A stretch of DNA of 64,000 nucleotides from Candidatus Hadarchaeota archaeon (lineage in GTDB: Archaea > CAYQAE01 > CAYVLA01). The position numbers were made by a program, and so were the translations under genes. Location of the stretch: positions 35,263-99,262 of the forward strand of contig CAZUNO010000009.1 in assembly GCA_964621445.1 (NCBI GenBank). Direction: 5' to 3'. This document shows positions 10,793 to 35,592 of the stretch, piece after piece (the first letter of the stretch is position 1; each line of letters begins with the position of its first letter). The notes under the pieces were generated by a model. The model was not told the origin of the DNA. It ran no database searches and was given only the letters and a program-made list of their open reading frames with translations.

Positions 10793-13700
10793 TCAGGACC
10801 CGCTCTTGAGCTGTTCCCGGGCCAAAAATGTGGCCGATAACGAGATTATCCAGAGCCCCAGGCCCAGCAATCCATTCTCAGTTATTTGGAATCCCCTGAA
10901 ATCCCTTCGGTATTGAAGATCTGTGTCAGCGTCAAAGATACCGTTCGAATTGGTATCCAGGACGATGTCATAGGAACCGAGCTCCAGCCGGTTTTCCCAA
11001 ACCGGATAGGTGGAAGAACCGGACGGAGCCACTATTTCATCATAGCCATCGGTGGAAATGTCCACCAGCGGTTCACCACTCCTCGCTTTCCCGTCTCTAA
11101 CCACGCGAAACCGGAGCGAATAGTCCCTGGGGGATACCACCGTAACGTAAACGGTATCGGTGATGGAGTAATCGACCTTCTCCCCGCCCCGCTCATCCGA
11201 TGCAAAAAATCGGATATCGGGGGTTGCCGCTAGGGAGATGGCAAGTGACTCGTTAACGCTAACCCACCTTTCCAACCGTTGATAGCCGGTCTTGTTAATC
11301 GATACCCGCCATTCTCCCTCCTCAAGCCATATATCCAACGGGAATTCCTCTACCAGGTATTCTTCTCGACCCACACAAACCGAGAGGTCGGCCAGGGGAA
11401 CTAGATTGACAGCGTCCCTAACAACGATCGATACCTGGTGCATCTCCTTCTGGCTGCTTATACCGGCGGTTGTATTTTGGGAACTGGAATCTCCGTCATC
11501 ATCCATAACCTCCAACATAATCTCATATTTTCCGGGCCCGGAATATGTATGATTGACCACCATTCCGGTCCCCGTCGTACCGTCCCCGAAGGCCCAGCGG
11601 TAGGTAACCACCCTGCCGTCCACGTCATAGGACCATGACCCGTCAAAGGTCACCGGTTCTCCCACAGAGCCCGAGTAGGGTCCGTGTGGATCGGCTCTCG
11701 GCAGGCGGTTCGAAGGCCTGATCTCTATGAAACCATTCTGGACATGATTATCCCGGGGATCTCTTTCCCAGGCAAGTACCTCTGCTCTGGCAGCTATGGT
11801 CCTCTCACCCATACTGGCTTCCGAGGTATCCCAAGTAAATTCATAAATTCTCTCGGTTCCCGAATCCAGCTCCGCCTCGAATGAGCCCACAACCTCCTCT
11901 CCCCATTCAATCCAAATTGACATATTCTGATCCGTTGACCCCTTGTTCTCGATACCAATGCTGATCTCCACGTCCTTTCCCCTGTGAACGCTTCTGGTTC
12001 CCGGGAGAACAGAATTTACCCTTATATCAGGCGCTGCCTCAACCTCCACCAATCCCCACTCCAGGTAATTATCTCCAACTGAGGTTTCTCCCTCCAGAGG
12101 TTCAAGAACCAGGCAGAGCATCGCTTTTCCTGCCTCGATGTCCGATGTGTTCCACATAAAACTGGTATTCACCGTGGACCCGGAAGATATGGAGAAAATC
12201 TTCTCGGTATCTCTGCTGGAATTAAATTCGAGGGCCAGAACTCCCTGTTGAGTCGAGCCTCCATAATTCTTGATTTTGACCCAAACGTCAACCCTCTGCC
12301 CCTGAACTGGAGAATCGTTGGAGATGGTTACCTCTAGAATTCCTAGGTCCGGCCTCGGAAGCACCTCAAAGCTGGATTGGCTCTCCGTATCCGTTCCGTC
12401 CGCCATCCCATTCCTATTGAGGTCCAACCAGGCCCTGTAAAGGCCCTCTTCGCCTATATCTCCCACTGGCGTGCAGGAAATACGCCCTTCCCCGTCCGCA
12501 GTTATCTCCTTCTCCAGGGAGGCAAGGGTTGGGTCCATATCCTGATCGGAATGCCCGATATAGGCGTCAAAGGTGATGTTTGACGGGAAGCCGCTGCCGG
12601 AGATATGTATGGTGTCCCCTGGAAAGAAGTGATCTCTCTCGCGGCCTAACTCGTCACAGAAGTCAAGCTTCATCTCAGGAGGATCGTCTCCCAGCCAGAA
12701 ATAGACGTAACAGGATGGCGGCCCGGTGTAGTCCCCTCTCACCTGGGCACCCACGACATGGTAACAACCGCTTCCCTGGCCCTGAGGCAGGAACTGTATG
12801 TCGAATTCTCCTTCAGACGACACCTCGCCGGCCTTTACAAACAGGTCATCCCAGATTATCTTTACGCTGGCGTTGGGTGGAAATCCCTGACCCACGACAT
12901 TTACCGTTGAACCCGGCAAAGCGTTTTCCGGTTCCAGATACATCTCCATCGGCCATTGGGAAACTTCAAATGTCCGATTTACGTGATCCAAGCCCGGGAA
13001 CCCGGTAGATATGCTTAGCTCATGAGCTCCCAGGTCGATGGTCCTATTCAATTGATAATCCATCTGGAAGCAACCCTCAACATCTATCACTCCACCTCCG
13101 ACCTTCACCCCGTCCACCAGTGCAAAATACACCGATTCCGGGGGGTAATTACAGCCAATTACGGTTATCAACCCTCCCGGGTACTGATGGTCGGAAACTA
13201 CTCCCGTTTCTGCCCTCCACTGGGTTATGTTTAGTCTGTAATTTCTAGTCGGGGGTCCCGAATAACCATCGACGGTAAAGGTCAAATCATGGAGACCTAA
13301 TGCAATATCCCTTGATAGAACAATGGATATGGTAAAGTTACCATCCCCGCTGGTAATTCCGGAAAATCTCTTTGAGGAATCCATATAGACCTCGAAGTCC
13401 GCTGCGGGTGGGAACTGGCTTCCGGTTAAGGTCAGATTGGAGCCTGGATGAATATCGGATGGCCGGATATCTACCAATAGGGGCCATTGGGTTAGATTGA
13501 AGGAGAGTTCCGCCTTGGGAGGACCTGTGAACTGGGGTGTCACCCCTGAGATCGTATGTTCCCCCAGAGTGGCGTTATTCCTGAACTCATGGACAAAGCT
13601 GAACCTCCCACGAGAACTCGTGTTCCCTGATCCTATTTCCTCATTATCAAGGCTGACCACAAACCGGGTATTAGGAGGGAAGAATCTGCCTTTCACGGTG

Positions 13701-14596
13701 ACGTTGCTGCCGGGGTGTCGATGAATTGGCTCCAGGGTGATCTCACAGGGCCATTGAATTACCTCAAAATCAATGTAGGTCCTCGGGGGACCGGTGTATT
13801 TCGTTGCGGTAATCTCCAGGACATGATTTCCCGTGGATATGTGTGGCGAAATCTGATAATTCCTGGAGAATTCTCCCCGTGCATCGGACGTGCCCACCCG
13901 AACCGAAGCTCCGTCGAGCAATATCTCGTATCTCGATAGGGGAGGTAGATGGGATCCGGATATGGACACGAAGGCGCCTGGATATGGGTCTGAGGGGTCA
14001 ATTACCAATTCCGGCTCCCACTGGTCTACCTTTAGCACCTCAGCTGCCGATGGGGGACCCGCAAACATGGGAGCCTTTCCAGTGACCTCGCAATCGCCAA
14101 CCAGCATTTGTTTTGGTACCGAGTAAAGACGGCAAAAGGTACCATTCTCATCGGTAGCACCCTCTAGAGTGGCGTTACCACAGATATCCACTCTATAGAA
14201 AGCATTCGGCGGGTAGCCCCGTCCGCAGATCGTCAGGTCCTGGCCTGGTTTGAGAATACTTGGGCTCAGATTCATCGCCGCGGGCCATTGAACGACCCGT
14301 ATCTCCGTTGAGGCGTTTATTGACCCCGAAACGGCCGTGAGGTTGTGCAATCCTATTGTTGTCTGCCTGGGAAGGGTCATCTTTCGGTGAAATGTACCGC
14401 CAGGATAGCTAGTGTCGCTAGCCACGCTCTCATTATCTATGAAAATCTCGAAATCTGCTGAGCCGGGAAACCCGGAACCGCTCACGGTAATCCTCGTACC
14501 CGGATGTGGTGATTCCTCCTCGACCACCACCGTGGGAGATGCTAGTACCCCACAAATAGCGGAAATCATGCATAGGAAGACCGGGATGGCGATCAT
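10793..14596 (-). CDS. Large surface protein: about 8 IPT/Ig-like repeats, 2 CARDB, PKD, PEGA-like domain, C-terminal TM anchor
   Basis: Signal peptide from ATG 14596; repeats PGxxxxxxGxxFPP...QW; PDLGILEV/PDIRVNSV CARDB; PKD FDGSWSYDVDG..YRWAFGDG; DxNxNG loops. Confidence 0.8.
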   Translation of the reverse strand: MIAIPVFLCMISAICGVLASPTVVVEEESPHPGTRITVSGSGFPGSADFEIFIDNESVASDTSYPGGTFHRKMTLPRQTTIGLHNLTAVSGSINASTEIRVVQWPAAMNLSPSILKPGQDLTICGRGYPPNAFYRVDICGNATLEGATDENGTFCRLYSVPKQMLVGDCEVTGKAPMFAGPPSAAEVLKVDQWEPELVIDPSDPYPGAFVSISGSHLPPLSRYEILLDGASVRVGTSDARGEFSRNYQISPHISTGNHVLEITATKYTGPPRTYIDFEVIQWPCEITLEPIHRHPGSNVTVKGRFFPPNTRFVVSLDNEEIGSGNTSSRGRFSFVHEFRNNATLGEHTISGVTPQFTGPPKAELSFNLTQWPLLVDIRPSDIHPGSNLTLTGSQFPPAADFEVYMDSSKRFSGITSGDGNFTISIVLSRDIALGLHDLTFTVDGYSGPPTRNYRLNITQWRAETGVVSDHQYPGGLITVIGCNYPPESVYFALVDGVKVGGGVIDVEGCFQMDYQLNRTIDLGAHELSISTGFPGLDHVNRTFEVSQWPMEMYLEPENALPGSTVNVVGQGFPPNASVKIIWDDLFVKAGEVSSEGEFDIQFLPQGQGSGCYHVVGAQVRGDYTGPPSCYVYFWLGDDPPEMKLDFCDELGRERDHFFPGDTIHISGSGFPSNITFDAYIGHSDQDMDPTLASLEKEITADGEGRISCTPVGDIGEEGLYRAWLDLNRNGMADGTDTESQSSFEVLPRPDLGILEVTISNDSPVQGQRVDVWVKIKNYGGSTQQGVLALEFNSSRDTEKIFSISSGSTVNTSFMWNTSDIEAGKAMLCLVLEPLEGETSVGDNYLEWGLVEVEAAPDIRVNSVLPGTRSVHRGKDVEISIGIENKGSTDQNMSIWIEWGEEVVGSFEAELDSGTERIYEFTWDTSEASMGERTIAARAEVLAWERDPRDNHVQNGFIEIRPSNRLPRADPHGPYSGSVGEPVTFDGSWSYDVDGRVVTYRWAFGDGTTGTGMVVNHTYSGPGKYEIMLEVMDDDGDSSSQNTTAGISSQKEMHQVSIVVRDAVNLVPLADLSVCVGREEYLVEEFPLDIWLEEGEWRVSINKTGYQRLERWVSVNESLAISLAATPDIRFFASDERGGEKVDYSITDTVYVTVVSPRDYSLRFRVVRDGKARSGEPLVDISTDGYDEIVAPSGSSTYPVWENRLELGSYDIVLDTNSNGIFDADTDLQYRRDFRGFQITENGLLGLGLWIISLSATFLAREQLKSGS

Positions 14597-14673
14597 CTTA
14601 TTCCTTATGCCAAACACCCCGACAGTAACTCCGCGATTCAGATAAGTATGTTTCGAAACCCAATGCGTCAAGT

Positions 14674-15459
14674 TTAGGGGAAGATGAACAGGACAAAAAC
14701 AACATACAGGCAGCATAGGGAACAGATCATCAAGTCGCCTCTACCGAAATGGCTTTTTCTCAGATAGGTCCTTTTTCGTGACGAACCAAATCCCCGGCCT
14801 TCCATGGAAATTGAAATTTGGTCCACCCTTGTTAGCGCCGACACAAGCAAGGGGTACAACGTGTATCGGGCAACTCTCAGTAAGGTTCTTGGCCCCGGCT
14901 TATCTATCTTCAGACCCCTTGCGATCTGGGCCGTCCTCACCGTATTGGCCTCGATCTGGAAAAGTGGTATAAACCGGAGCGCAAGTATCAGGGTGAACCC
15001 ATATCGATATGGTATGCCTCTTTCCATCAGCGAGTAAGCCATTATTGAGGGATCGGTGGTTCCCACAAATACCAGGCTCGACACTATTATTATCATCAGC
15101 CTCAAGGCTATTCTGGCCCCGGTGGTGATGCCCCCGGTGGTGATAACCAGGGGACCAAGGGGTCCCAGGTCAAGACCAATCAGAGGGCCGCCGCTCCTGT
15201 TGAACAGGGCCTGGAGCAGGAACAAAACAAGACAGAGACCGGTAATGGCCCTTATCCTCCGCATTCCGGCCATAAAACCCATTCCCGATGCCCCCACCAG
15301 TCCCAGAGTAATGAGGATAGTTAGGATCATTACCAGCAAACTGGTCGAAAACAGGGCTATCAGGCAGAAAGAGATTAGCATGACTATCTTGGAAAGAGGG
15401 TCCATTTTATGCAGAAACGAATGACCTGGAACATATCCAATTCTTCTCAATTTTTCCAC
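14674..15459 (-). CDS. ecfT: ECF transporter transmembrane component T (CbiQ-like)
   Basis: SFLHKMDPLSK, LALRFIP, AQIARG and SMEGRGF conserved Arg motifs. Confidence 0.92.
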   Translation of the reverse strand: MEKLRRIGYVPGHSFLHKMDPLSKIVMLISFCLIALFSTSLLVMILTILITLGLVGASGMGFMAGMRRIRAITGLCLVLFLLQALFNRSGGPLIGLDLGPLGPLVITTGGITTGARIALRLMIIIVSSLVFVGTTDPSIMAYSLMERGIPYRYGFTLILALRFIPLFQIEANTVRTAQIARGLKIDKPGPRTLLRVARYTLYPLLVSALTRVDQISISMEGRGFGSSRKRTYLRKSHFGRGDLMICSLCCLYVVFVLFIFP

Positions 15460-16940
15460 CTGGTGGGCAGGTAATAATCCTCGCCCGACCGTTCAAGGTA
15501 TCGGAAGACATCATTCGGCCTTCCTTCCCGGACTATCCTCCCTCGTCTCAGGAAAACTAATCTGCTGCAATATCGGTCAACGAAATTGGGGTCGTGGGTG
15601 GTGATCACGCAACTGGAACCGTCCTCAACTCGGGGTATTACTACCTCCATGATCCTCTCCACGTTATCCATGTCCTGTCCTATGAAAGGTTCATCCAGGA
15701 GGTATAGTTTGGGCCTGTAAACGGCCACCGAAGCCACATTAACCCTTCTCTTCTCCCCCGTGCTGAGGCTGTAGGGTGACTCATCGGCGTACTTGACGAG
15801 ATGTAGGGACTCCAGCATCTCACCAGTCCCTCGCTCAATCTCCCGATTCTTCATACCGAAGTTACGGGGGCCAAACTCCACCTCGCGTCTAACCGTCATC
15901 TCAACTATCTGGTGGGTTGGGTTCTGGAAGATAATTCCCACATCCCGTGATACCTCGGAGGTTGGCCCCACCATATTGCCGTCAATCAGCACCTCTCCCT
16001 GGTCAAGTTCCAGAAGTCCAACCAAACAGGCGAGGAGAGTGGTCTTTCCTGAACCATTATCACCCATGAGACCGATGATTTCCCCCCGATTTACCTCCAA
16101 GTCTATTCCCTTCAGCACCTTCTTGCCCCCTAAACTTATGCAAGCATTTCTAGTCACCGCTAGAGGTGCGGGCCCGATTTCTCCCTCTACACCAACATCC
16201 CTCGGGTGATATTCTCTAACATGGGATGGAATGGAATGAGATACGTTGATGTGCCCTTCGGATAATTTTCCCACCTTCATTTTCCTCGGCCCCAACCAGT
16301 CATATCGATGCTCAATGAGCACTATGGTAACTCCTCTGGCGTTAAGGGAATCCAACACTACTCTAAGTTCTCTCTTTGATGGAGGATCCAGGCTGGAGGT
16401 TGGTTCATCTAAAATCAGGATCTCTGGCTCCAGGGCCAGGATGGAGGCAATGGCAACCTTCTGCTTCTCACCTCCTGATAACTCAGCTATGTTCCTGGTT
16501 ATCAGATGATCCCCCTTTACCGAACGCAGTGCCCACTCAATCCGCTGTCTCATATCTGCCTCTTTCATCCCCATGTTTTCTGGGCCAAAGGCAACCTCAT
16601 CCTCCACTCTCAGTGTAACTATTTGAGAATCCGGGTCCTGTTGGACTAGACCGATAACCGTGACCAGGTCCTCCCTATCACGCGAGAAAACGCTCTCCCC
16701 ATCGATTCTCACATCGCCCGCCAGGTGCCCATCATCCGGGCCGAGGAAGCCCGTCGCCAGTTTTGCCAGAGTACTCTTGCCGCTACCGCTTTCGCCGGTT
16801 ATTAGTATGAAATCCCCACCCCCCACCTCGAGATTCATGTTTTTGATTACCGGTTCGGCACTTCCCGGATATCTAAAGGTGAGGTCTTTGAAATCTAACA
16901 ATCTCAGATCAGCTCTATGAAGGAGATCTTGCGGACCCAA
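15447..16940 (-). CDS. ecfA: ECF transporter fused double ATPase (EcfA-EcfA')
   Basis: Two Walker A motifs (GESGSGKST, GDNGSGKTT); QQDPDSQ/FQNPTHQ Q-loops; LSGGEKQK and LSTGEKRR; start may be slightly downstream. Confidence 0.92.
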   Translation of the reverse strand: MGPQDLLHRADLRLLDFKDLTFRYPGSAEPVIKNMNLEVGGGDFILITGESGSGKSTLAKLATGFLGPDDGHLAGDVRIDGESVFSRDREDLVTVIGLVQQDPDSQIVTLRVEDEVAFGPENMGMKEADMRQRIEWALRSVKGDHLITRNIAELSGGEKQKVAIASILALEPEILILDEPTSSLDPPSKRELRVVLDSLNARGVTIVLIEHRYDWLGPRKMKVGKLSEGHINVSHSIPSHVREYHPRDVGVEGEIGPAPLAVTRNACISLGGKKVLKGIDLEVNRGEIIGLMGDNGSGKTTLLACLVGLLELDQGEVLIDGNMVGPTSEVSRDVGIIFQNPTHQIVEMTVRREVEFGPRNFGMKNREIERGTGEMLESLHLVKYADESPYSLSTGEKRRVNVASVAVYRPKLYLLDEPFIGQDMDNVERIMEVVIPRVEDGSSCVITTHDPNFVDRYCSRLVFLRRGRIVREGRPNDVFRYLERSGEDYYLPTRWKN

Positions 16941-17917
16941 AGTGATCCATCAAGGTTATCTGCAACTAAACTAAATTCGCCCTCTTCCTCCTCCACAATT
17001 ATTGTTTTATCATTTCTCACCCGTTTCAGTTCAAGCTTCACCTTATATCCATCCTCAGCAACCAGCCTCACTCCAGTTGCATTGGGTTTTGGAATGGCCT
17101 CCTCAATTACCAGAGCCAGGGGGACCCCCGTGTAGTTACGAGGTTCAAGGTGGACGTAAGATCCCTCCAACTCCGCTTCAACGGTAATTACATCATCCCT
17201 GAAATCTTCCTCCTTGTAGCTATATGGGTTCTCGACCAGACCCCTTACCTCTATGCCCTGCCCAACACCCCAGGAGTAAACGGTGGAGTAATACCAAATT
17301 GAACCCGCTAGCAAAAGTACCACTACGATGTACCCGATGGCAGCCACCCCTTTTGAGACTTCATCCCGGTCAGGGACGGTAACTATCCCCGAATGGATAA
17401 GGGAAGCTAGCACCCCTTTGGCAAAATAACCCGCGAACAACACCCCGCTGGCAAATGCCAGGAGGGTTATTCCCAATATAAAGTAGATAGGTACCCCGGA
17501 AAGAAATAGCAGCTGAAAAACGAAGACATTTGATGCCGTGCTCAACCCACCTGACAACATCATGGTGAATCCCTGATTTGATTTTGATCTTAGCATCAGG
17601 ACATCAACTATAAGACCCTCCACCAGGGATACGAGAACGACTATCACCCCGTGAACGCTTCCCATAAGAAGCTCAATAACACCCTTGGAAAGGCCGGTCA
17701 GAGTGCCAGAACCATTTCTCCTGGTGGTCCCCCTGGCCAATAGTATCCAGAAAACATGGAGACCGGCCAGAAACTGGCCGGCACCGAAGGGCGTTCCCAC
17801 GAAATTGTTTACCAGGTTGGCCAAATAACCTATGTAGGTGCTTGAGACCCCTCCCAGGCCACTAATCACCGCTATGGTCACAAGATCTCTGGTAGAGAAA
17901 CTGGAAGGTAGCTTCAT
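16904..17917 (-). CDS. ECF S component (YkoE-like) fused to an extracellular Oxidored_molyb-like domain
   Basis: FSTRDLVTIAVISG start, about 6 TM plus 1 extra TM; C-terminal VRGLVENP..YTGVPL..A.DGY..WVRKISFIE sulfite-oxidase-fold pattern. Confidence 0.75.
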   Translation of the reverse strand: MKLPSSFSTRDLVTIAVISGLGGVSSTYIGYLANLVNNFVGTPFGAGQFLAGLHVFWILLARGTTRRNGSGTLTGLSKGVIELLMGSVHGVIVVLVSLVEGLIVDVLMLRSKSNQGFTMMLSGGLSTASNVFVFQLLFLSGVPIYFILGITLLAFASGVLFAGYFAKGVLASLIHSGIVTVPDRDEVSKGVAAIGYIVVVLLLAGSIWYYSTVYSWGVGQGIEVRGLVENPYSYKEEDFRDDVITVEAELEGSYVHLEPRNYTGVPLALVIEEAIPKPNATGVRLVAEDGYKVKLELKRVRNDKTIIVEEEEGEFSLVADNLDGSLWVRKISFIELI

Positions 17918-17950: not shown

Positions 17951-19843
17951 TCACTGCCCCGGTACATGATATATTATCTTTACTAAATTGCTTACCATAT
18001 ACTTACTTGACAGATCGCTGCCAACAACCCTCAGAGGCCCCTCATCCTCAGGCAGAACCTCGCCATCCTTCTTGTAAGCAAGAATGATATCATCATTCCT
18101 AGCAACCAGGGTGCTGTTCAAAGTCCTCGAATAACCATCACCAGCAATGACCTCAACACCATAACCCCCAGCAGCCAGATCATCATCAAAAAGATAATGA
18201 CCCTCCGGATCCATCTTACCATCCACAATACTAAGCACAACCCACAAAGGAAAACCAGAATACATATGAGTCTCATCATGCATAGTAACCTCCACCGAGG
18301 TACGATGAGTCCCACAAGTGGCACCGGAGATGAAAGAAGACCTGTTCAACACAGCATTCACACTACCCGAAAGCTCGACATCCCAATCCTTAACAGGCTG
18401 GTTTACCACTATTTCGGCAACCTCCTTCACCCAGTAGTGACCATCGGTTATCTGTCCCGAATCGCCAACGTAACCAAGGCGGAGAGGACCTCCGCTGAAA
18501 TCACTGCTTCCGTCCATTTCATAGATCAACACTCCATCAACACCCCCCATCCCGGTTTCCGTGCCCTGGCTATCATAGGTGATAACCTGACCCTCGATCT
18601 CCTCGTGGGAAAGCATCATGCTATAGCCATCTGAGGCAATAACCTCCACGCTGTAATTTGCTGGCAGGTCTCCGGTCATTTCTATTAGAGGCTCTATGGG
18701 AGCCCCAACCACCTCGTAGGGTCCCCGAACTGTTCCTGTGACCTTCTTGAATCCCGCACTTCCCTCAATGTTCTCCATTCTGATTATGTCCGAAAGGAAC
18801 AGTTGCTTAGTCTTCTCACCCTCTACCTTTAACTTCCACAGGGTGTAGAACTCAATGCTATCCACGTCCTCAACCAAGATGCCCTCTCCCACCAAAGCGG
18901 GGGCAGCTAGGGAATCTCCATCGGCCATCTGGGCAATAATCATCTGACTTTCAGACAGGGCCCTGCTATCCAGGCTAGTACTGTTGGCCCCTGAAACCCT
19001 TACCTCATAGCCACTTTGCGCATAACTAAGGTTGAAAGTGGAGTCACCTATTTTGGGACCACCATCCACCAGGCCAAGAATCCTGGATATCTCCAGGCCA
19101 CTCCAACTTGTCCCCGACGCTCTTGTGATGTTGGTTAGATTTCCGTACGAAAGTGATTCAAATTCCGACCTCGACAGGTCCATGGAACGGCTCCCGTTTA
19201 ACGTCATCGTCCATTCGGTTTCCGGCGACCGCTCTCGCGTAATCTCGAATTTCCACGTGTCTCTAACCAAACGGGATCCAGCTGATGGATTTACGAAATA
19301 TCCATGACCAGCTCCCGATGTGTATCTCACGTCGATATTACTCAGATCCCCGTCTTCAGGTAAGAACACCGTTCTAGGGCCTTTCTCCCAACCGGGTATA
19401 TCCTCTCCATCGAGGGAGAATGCGAGTATGAAATCCCCCTGAAGACTCTCCCAGTATGGGCTTGGATAAACGTTATAATAGTTATACTCCTGAAAATACC
19501 CGTCGGTACTGGAAATGGTCAGTATGTCACCAGGTTCCATGCCCCCGACCTTTTCTACCAGTTCCGAGATCTTAACCCCTTCAAAGGTCGACGATTCTCC
19601 CCAATTACCGAGTCGATTCTCGTATCGCATATCACCGGACATGGAATCCATATCCTTGAGCTCACTAAAGTCGAGGATAACCTCCGATCCCTCTCTCCCT
19701 ATCAAGGTAATGTTTGCATAGGTCTTGTTCTCCGATTCCGAGGGACCGGAAAATAGGAACCAGACGAATCCTCCTCCTATTATTACTATGGCTACCAATA
19801 TGAGGGCTAGTTGCTTTCCATTTTGATCTCCGTTACCAGACAT
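17951..19843 (-). CDS. Membrane-anchored protein with four Oxidored_molyb (sulfite-oxidase-fold)-like repeats
   Basis: N-terminal TM; repeated FEGVKISEL/WSGLEI/VVGAPI/YSGFPL, (S/G)DGY, ILA(F/Y)xxDG and GP(L)R motifs; RBS GGTGTGA before ATG 19843. Confidence 0.75.
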   Translation of the reverse strand: MSGNGDQNGKQLALILVAIVIIGGGFVWFLFSGPSESENKTYANITLIGREGSEVILDFSELKDMDSMSGDMRYENRLGNWGESSTFEGVKISELVEKVGGMEPGDILTISSTDGYFQEYNYYNVYPSPYWESLQGDFILAFSLDGEDIPGWEKGPRTVFLPEDGDLSNIDVRYTSGAGHGYFVNPSAGSRLVRDTWKFEITRERSPETEWTMTLNGSRSMDLSRSEFESLSYGNLTNITRASGTSWSGLEISRILGLVDGGPKIGDSTFNLSYAQSGYEVRVSGANSTSLDSRALSESQMIIAQMADGDSLAAPALVGEGILVEDVDSIEFYTLWKLKVEGEKTKQLFLSDIIRMENIEGSAGFKKVTGTVRGPYEVVGAPIEPLIEMTGDLPANYSVEVIASDGYSMMLSHEEIEGQVITYDSQGTETGMGGVDGVLIYEMDGSSDFSGGPLRLGYVGDSGQITDGHYWVKEVAEIVVNQPVKDWDVELSGSVNAVLNRSSFISGATCGTHRTSVEVTMHDETHMYSGFPLWVVLSIVDGKMDPEGHYLFDDDLAAGGYGVEVIAGDGYSRTLNSTLVARNDDIILAYKKDGEVLPEDEGPLRVVGSDLSSKYMVSNLVKIIYHVPGQ

Positions 19844-19849
19844 GATCAC

Positions 19850-19891
19850 ACCGATATGCACGGCCATGCATAACGGTCTTTAAACTCTTTC
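19850..19891 (-). promoter_or_regulatory. BRE/TATA promoter with ModE-box-like operator overlapping the predicted start site
   Basis: Inverted repeat ACCGATATGCA-N6-TGCATAACGGT (19850-19877, 1 mismatch) directly downstream of GAAAGAGTTTAAA. Confidence 0.65.
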
Positions 19892-20029
19892 CTACCAGTT
19901 AGGTTTGGCTCCATATCGATCATCAATGAAGGAATCCGCCATCTTTTTGAACTTCTCACAAGCGACCGGATCATCTTCAACAATGCTTTTTACCATTTCA
20001 ACTCCTCCACCAGCCCATCATTTCACCGG

Positions 20030-34131: not shown

Positions 34132-35592
34132 TTAAGACTTGTTATCGGAGCTATTCTGGAGAATATTTGCGTAGATATTCATTGCTCGCCGGTATGACTC
34201 CTGTACCTCAACTCTCTCCTTCTCATCCCCGTAACGACGGTCATCCTGGATGGATCTCTCAAGCAACTCCCGGCACCAGTTAAGATAGAATTCCGCGTCC
34301 TCAGGAGAGGGGTTCATAGGGCTTTCAGTCTGTAGGAAGAATGGATTGGAGTGGGCAAATATGGTATCGTTCCTGGCCTCGAAAGCTCTTACTGCCAACC
34401 AACAGCTTTCCTCTATCTCCAGGTCAATAATCTGTTCAAAGGTTCTCTCATCCTGCGCATCCCAGGAGTCATCTACAGATCCATTCCTGACCAGGTCCAC
34501 CGTCCTCAATTTATGGCCCGATATTACCTTAATCTCGATCTGTACCTCCCTGGTTTTGATAGGCCTGAGGCGTATCCCCGGGCCCTCACCACTAATACAG
34601 GTGAAAAGCATTGGCCCATTTGTTGCAAAGCCTCTACCCTCCTTCATTGCCTGGCACCATGATCCGTAGTTGAAATCCTCGCCCTCCATTTTCACGTAAA
34701 GCCGGTTAAAACCCACCGGGTTTAGCATAACCCCAGATGCGGATCCTGCCGAAATGGGGATCCTCATTCCCAGGTTCAGATACCTGTAATAGAGATCCAA
34801 CACGTAGTCTAGAAACCCTCTAGTGCCTGGATATCTATCCCTGTCCCTCGGCCTACCCCAGGCTTCATCATCCCTGACCTCACGTCTCTGAAGGTGGTTG
34901 TTTACAACTCCCATGGTGTCCACCAGGCCCAAAGCAACATTGACCGGGGCCTCCCACCAGAACGGTTTTTCCTGTTCGATGATTGCCCCCCGTTCTTTCA
35001 TTCTACGAAGCAGGAGGTTCTGTGCGGGATGCCAATTACCGGTCGCGACCTTGACGGGATTGCAGATATTTATGCCCATCGCCGCTCCCCCGGACCTTTC
35101 ATCCTCCTGAGTCATGAAGCTATACGACCTTTTCCCCCTCTGCCAAATATCCCCCTGGAACAGAAGGCCTTCGAATTGCCATTCCTGGTTCCAGTAGCTT
35201 ATGACCGGGGCAACGTTGAGATCCTCGGCCTCCAGAAGGTGCGGCATCCTTCGGGGGTTGCGGTGAACGTGGGTGTCTCCCGAATACCAGCCCAGTTTCG
35301 CCATGTCGATCCATCTTCTCATTTCAAAGAGGCGAGTGGTAACCTCCCCCTCGCTTATCTCAATTGTATCCGAGATGCCCTCATACTCCTTTCCCTTTTC
35401 AATCAGGATATGTGCAATGCCCCTAGGAAGGTGGATTGAGAAGCCCCCGTAGATGGTGAAATGGAGGTCCTTTTTGTAGGGAACTCCGCCTCTAGGGTAC
35501 CTATACTCCCCATCTGCATCCTGTAGCTGGATCCTGGCATGTGTGGGCTTTCCACTTTCCTCTATCCGGAGGTCAAGACTCCCGTTTTCCAT
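34132..35592 (-). CDS. CehA/McbA-like PHP-fold metallohydrolase
   Basis: KGKEYE, RWIDM..GWYSGDTHVH, YRYLNLG..SAGS, GRGFATNGP, AHSNPF. Confidence 0.75.
   Translation of the reverse strand: MENGSLDLRIEESGKPTHARIQLQDADGEYRYPRGGVPYKKDLHFTIYGGFSIHLPRGIAHILIEKGKEYEGISDTIEISEGEVTTRLFEMRRWIDMAKLGWYSGDTHVHRNPRRMPHLLEAEDLNVAPVISYWNQEWQFEGLLFQGDIWQRGKRSYSFMTQEDERSGGAAMGINICNPVKVATGNWHPAQNLLLRRMKERGAIIEQEKPFWWEAPVNVALGLVDTMGVVNNHLQRREVRDDEAWGRPRDRDRYPGTRGFLDYVLDLYYRYLNLGMRIPISAGSASGVMLNPVGFNRLYVKMEGEDFNYGSWCQAMKEGRGFATNGPMLFTCISGEGPGIRLRPIKTREVQIEIKVISGHKLRTVDLVRNGSVDDSWDAQDERTFEQIIDLEIEESCWLAVRAFEARNDTIFAHSNPFFLQTESPMNPSPEDAEFYLNWCRELLERSIQDDRRYGDEKERVEVQESYRRAMNIYANILQNSSDNKS

Follow-up and report, generated by a model that had tools for sequence, protein, structure and literature searches.

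The window analyzed here, a 64,000-nucleotide stretch from contig C9 of a Candidatus Hadarchaeota genome (G000), carries on its minus strand an operon in which a membrane-anchored SUOX-fold protein precedes the components of an ECF transporter:

17951–19843, minus strand: gene 1, a 630-aa, N-terminally membrane-anchored protein with repeated SUOX-fold (Oxidored_molyb) domains (PF00174, E = 3.2e-11)
16904–17917, minus strand: gene 2, ECF substrate-specific (S) component (PF09819)
15447–16940, minus strand: gene 3, fused EcfA-EcfA′ ATPase with two ABC_tran domains (2× PF00005)
14674–15459, minus strand: gene 4, EcfT (CbiQ family) transmembrane component (PF02361)

With the S component, two ATPase domains, and the T component encoded in one operon, this is a Group I (dedicated) ECF transporter, and the gene order S/ATPase/T is kept in loci L012, L013, L016, L017, and L018. 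Orthologs of gene 1 in the related genomes G001 and G003 show 48–50% identity, and orthologs of gene 2, in operons of the same type, show 44–45% identity in G185, G265, and G401. After EcfT, and overlapping it by 43 nt, lies the gene for a 1307-aa PKD/CARDB/TIG surface protein (10793–14716, minus strand), which may belong to the same transcription unit. Shorter paralogs of the SUOX-fold protein, of 428–496 aa, also occur (G000:C16:16242–16688, locus L011; L009 and L010; L077:536–2026 and L078:584–2062). In G185 and G265, the shorter paralog stands alone behind a perfect ModE-type site; no ModE-type site was found at the G000 paralog.

The region upstream of gene 1 contains a near-palindrome and the putative elements of an archaeal promoter:

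19891–19885, minus strand: putative BRE, GAAAGAG
19884–19879, minus strand: putative TATA box, TTTAAA, 1 nt upstream of the 28-mer
19850–19877, no strand assigned: candidate ModE-type operator, a 28-bp near-palindrome with a core conserved in orthologous promoters and at archaeal Mo/W genes
19852–19875: operator core, 24 bp, with the coding strand reading CGTTATGC-N8-GCATATCG
19844–19849, minus strand: GTGATC, the six bases between the operator and the start codon

On the coding (minus) strand, the order is GAAAGAG-TTTAAA-G, the 28-mer from 19877 to 19850, GTGATC, and the ATG at 19843–19841, where the BRE and the TATA box, recognized by their sequence, would constitute the promoter. The 28-mer, which reads ACCGATATGCACGGCCATGCATAACGGT on the plus strand, consists of two 11-bp arms, mismatched at one position, and the 6-bp spacer between them, exactly as an earlier note on this DNA had described it; treated as a 14+14 palindrome in a repeat search, it is complementary at 12 of 14 positions (86%). 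The same note had placed the palindrome immediately downstream of BRE-TATA, and TTTAAA is indeed 1 nt away on the coding strand, although the range that it gave, 19850–19891, takes in the BRE/TATA element in addition to the operator itself (19850–19877). GTGATC, together with the last bases of the operator (GGTGTGATC), might be read as resembling a Shine-Dalgarno sequence. The list of open reading frames has gene 1 starting at the ATG at 19867, inside the palindrome; we rejected this start because alignment with the orthologs places it at 19843. A 34-codon ORF (MVKSIVEDDP...KPNW; 19892–19996, minus strand) abuts BRE/TATA and ends 15 nt upstream of the operator.

The palindrome is unique in its genome. 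Allowing up to one mismatch, the pattern CGNTATRY-N8-RYATANCG has a single match in the window, where 0.02 would be expected on the basis of 100 shuffles, and in the whole 3.21-Mb genome the pattern has exactly one match. Scoring with a weight matrix, which had been suggested along with the original observation, singles out the same site: a matrix built from five related sites assigns it 35.7 bits, compared with 17.7 bits for the next best place in the genome, which lies within a 567-aa ORF. No further site was found at the five AOR genes of G000 in the motif and weight-matrix scans of the genome. Two near-matches, G000:C8:83356 and G001:C104:64278, were set aside as chance occurrences, as they fall within ORFs of 567 and 410 aa, respectively. 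At G000:C2:198864 and C12:27099, only the outer CGNTAT-N12-ATANCG frame matches and the TATG/CATA core is missing.

Recurrence of the element in orthologous promoters and at archaeal Mo/W genes

The lineage is thinly sampled: of the 60 relatives searched, three genomes belong to the family of G000 and one to its class. With the single gene 1 protein as the query, no loci were found in the genome contigs; a three-sequence alignment as the query found orthologous loci. The element, CGATATGY-N8-RCATATCG, recurs at the corresponding position in the promoters of three other archaeal copies of the operon (G001, G003, and L016). It reads CGATATGCTCACGCGAACATATCG in G001 and CGATATGCACAGGCTTGCATATCG in G003, in both cases directly after AAAGAGTTAA and 0–7 nt before the ATG, with AAAGAGTT(A/T)AA at the same place in these two genomes. 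At the metagenome locus L016, where protein identity has dropped to 33%, the arrangement is ATATATATA, 7 nt, AGTTATGCTTGCTCAAGCATATCG, 11 nt, ATG. When five promoters are aligned, the element is the only conserved block. Furthermore, in a separate archaeal family, represented by G185 and G265, both genomes share a variant of the palindrome, TGATATGA-N8-ACATATCA, before the orthologous operon, which there encodes a metallophosphoesterase-SUOX-like fusion, the S component, and EcfA-A′. Among the archaeal promoters compared, the operator starts 1–7 nt past the TATA-like element and ends 0–11 nt before the ATG.

The element is also found at other genes. A search of five genomes of the class with CGWTATGY-N8-RCATWTCG detected perfect sites only at SUOX-fold/ECF operons and at one place in G002, the member of the family that lacks this operon. 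The G002 site is flanked on one side by the TATA-like GATTTAAG and on the other by the ATG of the first gene, TupA-like (NF041772, E = 4.6e-51), of the cluster tupA-tupB-tupC(TOBE)-moaA-moaE-moaC-moaB-moeA. On a broader scale, the exact pattern is present in 25 of 401 archaeal genomes, from 10 families, and the reversed control pattern in 1. Outside the family, it occurs at 26 places in 21 genomes, of which 23 were examined and 3 left out, and 16 of these 23 places flank Mo/W genes, namely those for TupA-like proteins (8), ModA (2), AOR (2), the tungsten-type FwdF (2), and membrane-anchored Oxidored_molyb (SUOX-fold) proteins (2). The remaining 7 flank Nif3-like genes (2), a gene for a BtuF/Fe/B12-type binding protein (1), or unknown genes (3), or lie inside a coding region (1). 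Thirteen of the 16 Mo/W-flanking sites lie 0–52 nt before the provisional start codon; the distance is 74–75 nt for both AOR genes, and at one TupA-like ORF, the site overlaps the called start by 20 nt. The half-sites mostly read GATATGY, A being the second base in 39 of 52, and the CG that flanks them is conserved.

The motif, then, is found in promoters of Mo/W transport, cofactor, or enzyme genes. According to the earlier note, absence of the motif upstream of orthologous operons and of other Mo/W genes would refute a ModE box. It is present before the orthologous operons in G001, G003, and L016, and as a variant in G185 and G265, as well as at the tupABC-moa operon of G002 and at TupA, ModA, AOR, and FwdF genes elsewhere. 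A Nif3-like (YbgI family) gene, which in two genomes of family f42 has a perfect ModE-type site in front of it (L065:686–1477 and L066:1568–2338), is possibly an unrecognized member of the regulon.

Resemblance to ModE sites and the candidate regulator

Methanosarcina acetivorans ModE binds RTTATGT-N8-RCATAAY in EMSA (PMC12327845); its sites precede the genes for formylmethanofuran dehydrogenase and for Fe and molybdate ABC transporters, in one case of a molybdate transporter at 29 bp from the start codon. The G000 sequence GTTATGC-N8-GCATATC agrees with this motif at 12 of 14 specified positions (hand count) and has the identical 8-bp spacer, so that the two share an archaeal inverted repeat with a TATG...CATA core. 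Unlike in M. acetivorans, the half-site here is mostly GATATGY with flanking CG, the C-terminal domain of the candidate regulator has no TOBE match, and the target is an ECF/SUOX-fold operon, which is not among the targets listed for that species. The E. coli ModE consensus, ATCGNTATATA-N6-TATATANCGAT, as quoted in PMC545781, agrees with the G000 site at 14 of 20 specified positions (hand count), with identical 11+6+11 geometry and the common CGNTAT...ATANCG frame. Operators of the E. coli type repress Mo uptake genes; their inner arm bases are AT, whereas those of the G000 site are GC, and the E. coli operator is located at a sigma-70 promoter, in contrast to the G000 site, which lies between an archaeal TATA box and the expected transcription start. 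The geometry itself is that of a ModE box, given that 11-bp arms around a 6-bp spacer are equivalent to 7-bp half-sites 8 bp apart. ModE operators in Archaea have already been published, and the G000 operator adds to them a further member and a variant half-site (CGATATGY) found in 10 archaeal families.

A candidate for the cognate regulator is encoded on a different contig of G000 (C16) from the operon (C9):

G000 contig C16, 34929–35162: ModE_repress-type HTH (TIGR00637, E = 8e-25; 88.2 bits, below the curated cut-off of 98.5)
L001, 1438–1923 (G000 contig C16, about 34866–35351): ModE-like regulator gene, ~160 aa

The N-terminal domain belongs to the ModE-type winged HTH family, and the PF00126 match, at 26.6 bits, is at the cut-off. 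No match to TOBE (PF03459) was found anywhere in G000, the regulator protein included, and instead of the pair of C-terminal Mop/TOBE domains typical of E. coli ModE, the AF2 model (pLDDT 81) predicts, after the winged HTH, a single five-strand beta domain of ~55 aa. Comparison of the regulator profile with the PDB retrieved 2ijl (7e-32) and E. coli ModE 1b9m (1e-18), and the best Foldseek matches of the AF2 model are E. coli ModE 1b9m and 1o7l, over ~180 columns (E = 5e-10), which extends beyond the DNA-binding domain. PMC12327845 describes M. acetivorans ModE as having a single Mop subdomain and not binding Mo in vitro, and E. coli ModE as having two Mop domains that bind molybdate. Full-length relatives of the G000 regulator are few. 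In many proteins of other archaea, some of them labelled Thermoplasmata, the ModE-type HTH is fused to a NUDIX hydrolase domain (homologs P0008–P0083).

Genomes G001, G002, and G003 encode one such HTH each, in the same context, after a PD-(D/E)XK gene, and none was found in genome G004. A ModE-like HTH gene, which the earlier note had proposed to look for, is present in G000 and in all 25 genomes with the motif, as judged by TIGR00637 (ModE_repress), compared with 84 of 376 other archaeal genomes; the qualifications are that, in G000, the score is below the cut-off and the gene has no canonical start codon. In family f33, about 2.3 kb separate the HTH gene from the tupA operator in four genomes. 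The genes preceding the ModE-like gene in L001 encode a NikR-like protein (RHH and NikR_C; 317–712) and a PD-(D/E)XK nuclease-like protein (723–1445), the latter neighbor being conserved in all four genomes of the family.

No ATG, GTG, or TTG is found upstream of the HTH in the G000 regulator gene; GTA occupies the position of GTG in G003 and overlaps the stop codon of the upstream PD-(D/E)XK gene. The regulator genes of G001, G002, and G003 start with ATG or GTG (ATG in G001). Contigs of a second strain, from a second study, retain both the GTA and an intact reading frame free of indels, and 15 of the 24 differences fall at third codon positions, so that the gene looks to be under purifying selection. 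Judging from these sequences, the G000 gene is probably functional, and its non-canonical or coupled initiation seems real.

Proposed operator function and alternative explanations

We consider it highly probable that a ModE-family transcription factor uses the palindrome as its operator and that the operon is a member of the Mo/W regulon, likely a cofactor importer. The recognition of a ModE box in the earlier note is supported by the orthologous promoters, the association with Mo/W genes, the HTH in all 25 motif genomes, and the shared geometry with proven motifs, all of which point in the same direction.

Archaeal transcription starts about 25 nt from the center of the TATA box. Given this distance and the spacing between the TATA box and the operator, the start is expected within the right half-site. 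Several archaeal repressors, for example, MDR1, Phr, and TrmB, have operators between the TATA box and the start of transcription; the G000 operator resembles theirs in its position relative to the TATA box and in the presumed block of RNA polymerase recruitment, and differs in protein family and signal. A regulator dimer would occupy the two CGATATGY half-sites, which are spaced by 8 bp, covering the expected start and the DNA immediately past the TATA box. In a cell replete in tungsten, molybdenum, or the pterin cofactor, the bound dimer would block recruitment of RNA polymerase, and in a starved cell, the operon would be released. We infer repression, as did the earlier note, since silencing under Mo/W or cofactor sufficiency would fit an uptake operon and would parallel the logic of the bacterial riboswitches described below. 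That note named molybdate or tungstate as the signal. The effector may not be a Mo/W oxyanion, considering that M. acetivorans ModE did not bind Mo in vitro (PMC12327845) and that the Mop-like domain of the present regulator is divergent, with no TOBE match.

The palindrome might instead be bound by a Mo/W-responsive regulator from another family, with the ModE-type HTH gene as a bystander. Such a reading would accommodate the separation of the ModE-like gene and the operon in G000 (contigs C16 and C9), the lack of a canonical start codon in the former, the occurrence in other archaea of ModE-type HTHs fused to unrelated sensors (NUDIX, for example), and the 84 genomes that have the HTH without the exact motif. 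However, the HTH is found in every one of the 25 motif genomes, the HTH gene is close to the tupA operator in family f33, and a near-identical motif is bound by M. acetivorans ModE in EMSA (PMC12327845), all of which makes a bystander unlikely. The missing start codon also bears on the possibility that the G000 site is a relic, the regulator being untranslated and the operon, therefore, constitutive. Indeed, G000 has none of the codons ATG, GTG, and TTG ahead of the HTH, whereas G001, G002, and G003 have ATG or GTG. This explanation appears quite improbable, given that the second strain keeps the GTA together with an intact frame and 15 of 24 differences at third codon positions, and that the operator is still palindromic at 12 of 14 positions.

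The remaining alternatives dispense with a DNA-binding protein. If fully transcribed, the palindrome would fold at −14.5 kcal/mol, and the 34-codon ORF ends 15 nt upstream of it, so that an RNA or DNA hairpin could be envisaged, acting either as a 5′-UTR mask of translation or as a terminator for the small ORF. We deem this very improbable: the sequence of the arms, beyond their ability to pair, is conserved at the unrelated genes tupA, modA, aor, and fwdF; no T-run follows the palindrome; no Rfam family matched the archaeal promoters; and, with a TATA box 1–7 nt upstream, transcription would be expected to start inside the palindrome. Nor does covariation favor pairing, because, among 26 distinct sites, the freely varying arm pair (positions 8–17) is Watson-Crick in 16, G-U in 2, and unpaired in 8, with ~50% expected; the arm pair 3–22 was excluded, one side of it having been fixed by the search pattern. 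A functionless chance occurrence, with which the single copy in the genome might be reconciled, has a vanishingly small probability: 0.02 matches are expected per window, the exact pattern is found in 25 genomes compared with 1 for the reversed control, and conservation at 33–50% protein identity effectively refutes chance.

Bacterial orthologs and the case for cofactor uptake

The value of the ModE-family operator lies in its target, a probable cofactor-salvage importer. Genomes G000, G001, G002, and G003 have five AOR genes each, and within this family, MoaC, MoaE, MoeA, and MoaA were found only in G002, as was the TupA-like gene. A search of the G000 genome identified no moaA, moaC, moaE, or moeA and no Mo/W ABC transporter; the organism appears to be incapable of synthesizing the cofactor. 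The only SBP_bac_11 match in G000 was rejected as a Mo/W-binding protein, being the phosphate-binding PstS rather than ModA or WtpA. When the eight tup/moa proteins of G002 were compared with G000 by tblastn, only generic ABC-ATPase and weak radical-SAM matches, and no specific homolog, were obtained. G185 and G265, with 9 and 10 AOR matches, respectively, likewise lack MoaC and MoeA. Altogether, five archaeal genomes (G000, G001, G003, G185, and G265) combine the operon and several AOR genes with no detectable moaC or moeA, the assemblies behind these absences being 96–100% complete. The link between the operon and loss of the pathway is not absolute because the bacterial metagenome-assembled genome G401 encodes MoaC and MoeA in addition to the operon.

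The Mo/W role of the operon, for which the earlier note had taken the palindrome as DNA-level support, receives independent support from the bacterial orthologs. Upstream of L014, L017, L018, L021, and L022, there is a Moco/Tuco riboswitch (RF01055), with scores of 50.6–69.6 bits compared with a gathering score of 36, and no ModE-type palindrome. In the three riboswitch alignments examined, stem P3 is missing, and Regulski et al. (2008, PMC2408646) associate the P3-less form with the tungsten cofactor. RF01055 was not found (E ≤ 0.1) at the archaeal loci L006 (the G000 locus), L007, L008, and L016. Upstream of L019 and L020, where the ortholog is fused to a metallophosphoesterase, neither a palindrome nor a riboswitch was detected. 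The riboswitch is a functional analog of the archaeal operator, with the same operon and the same physiological signal, but it is an RNA sensor of the cofactor rather than a protein operator. Thus, two unrelated sensors, a ModE-type operator in archaea and a P3-less Moco/Tuco riboswitch in bacteria, converge on the SUOX-fold/ECF operon. In bacterial loci L017 (6610–7686) and L018 (5575–6651), the S component (PF09819) carries an Oxidored_molyb domain as a C-terminal fusion, which physically ties the SUOX-fold module to the transporter. A TPP riboswitch (L014:206–318, minus strand; 56.2 bits) and a TwoAYGGAY RNA (L022:1445–1602, minus strand; 49.5 bits) lie near bacterial operons on the opposite strand.

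The operon most likely imports the preformed tungsten/molybdenum pterin cofactor or its pterin. A fuller scenario, to which we assign an even chance, is that a ModE-controlled ECF importer takes up the preformed cofactor with the aid of a SUOX-fold capture module; that G000, G001, and G003 and, independently, G185 and G265 have, as whole lineages, apparently lost the complete biosynthetic pathway, retained 5–10 tungsten AOR enzymes, and live in microbial mats as auxotrophs on the cofactor that their neighbors release; and that the signal perceived by the regulator may be the cofactor or its pterin instead of the oxyanion. If this scenario is true, it would provide a transporter and a regulator with which cofactor cross-feeding can be studied, and metabolic reconstructions in which such organisms are taken to be incapable of using AOR-type enzymes would be corrected. 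In the literature searched, we found no paper on prokaryotic uptake of the molybdenum/tungsten cofactor (PMC2408646 and PMC3766115 included) and no published account of ModE or riboswitch control of a SUOX-fold/ECF operon.

Most versions of the operon also include a calcineurin-like metallophosphoesterase, often as a SUOX-like fusion (L016:3989–5506, L017:5024–6628, L018:3131–4480, and L079:78–1481), which is absent from the operons of G000, G001, and G003. Speculatively, this enzyme could trim dinucleotide forms of the cofactor.
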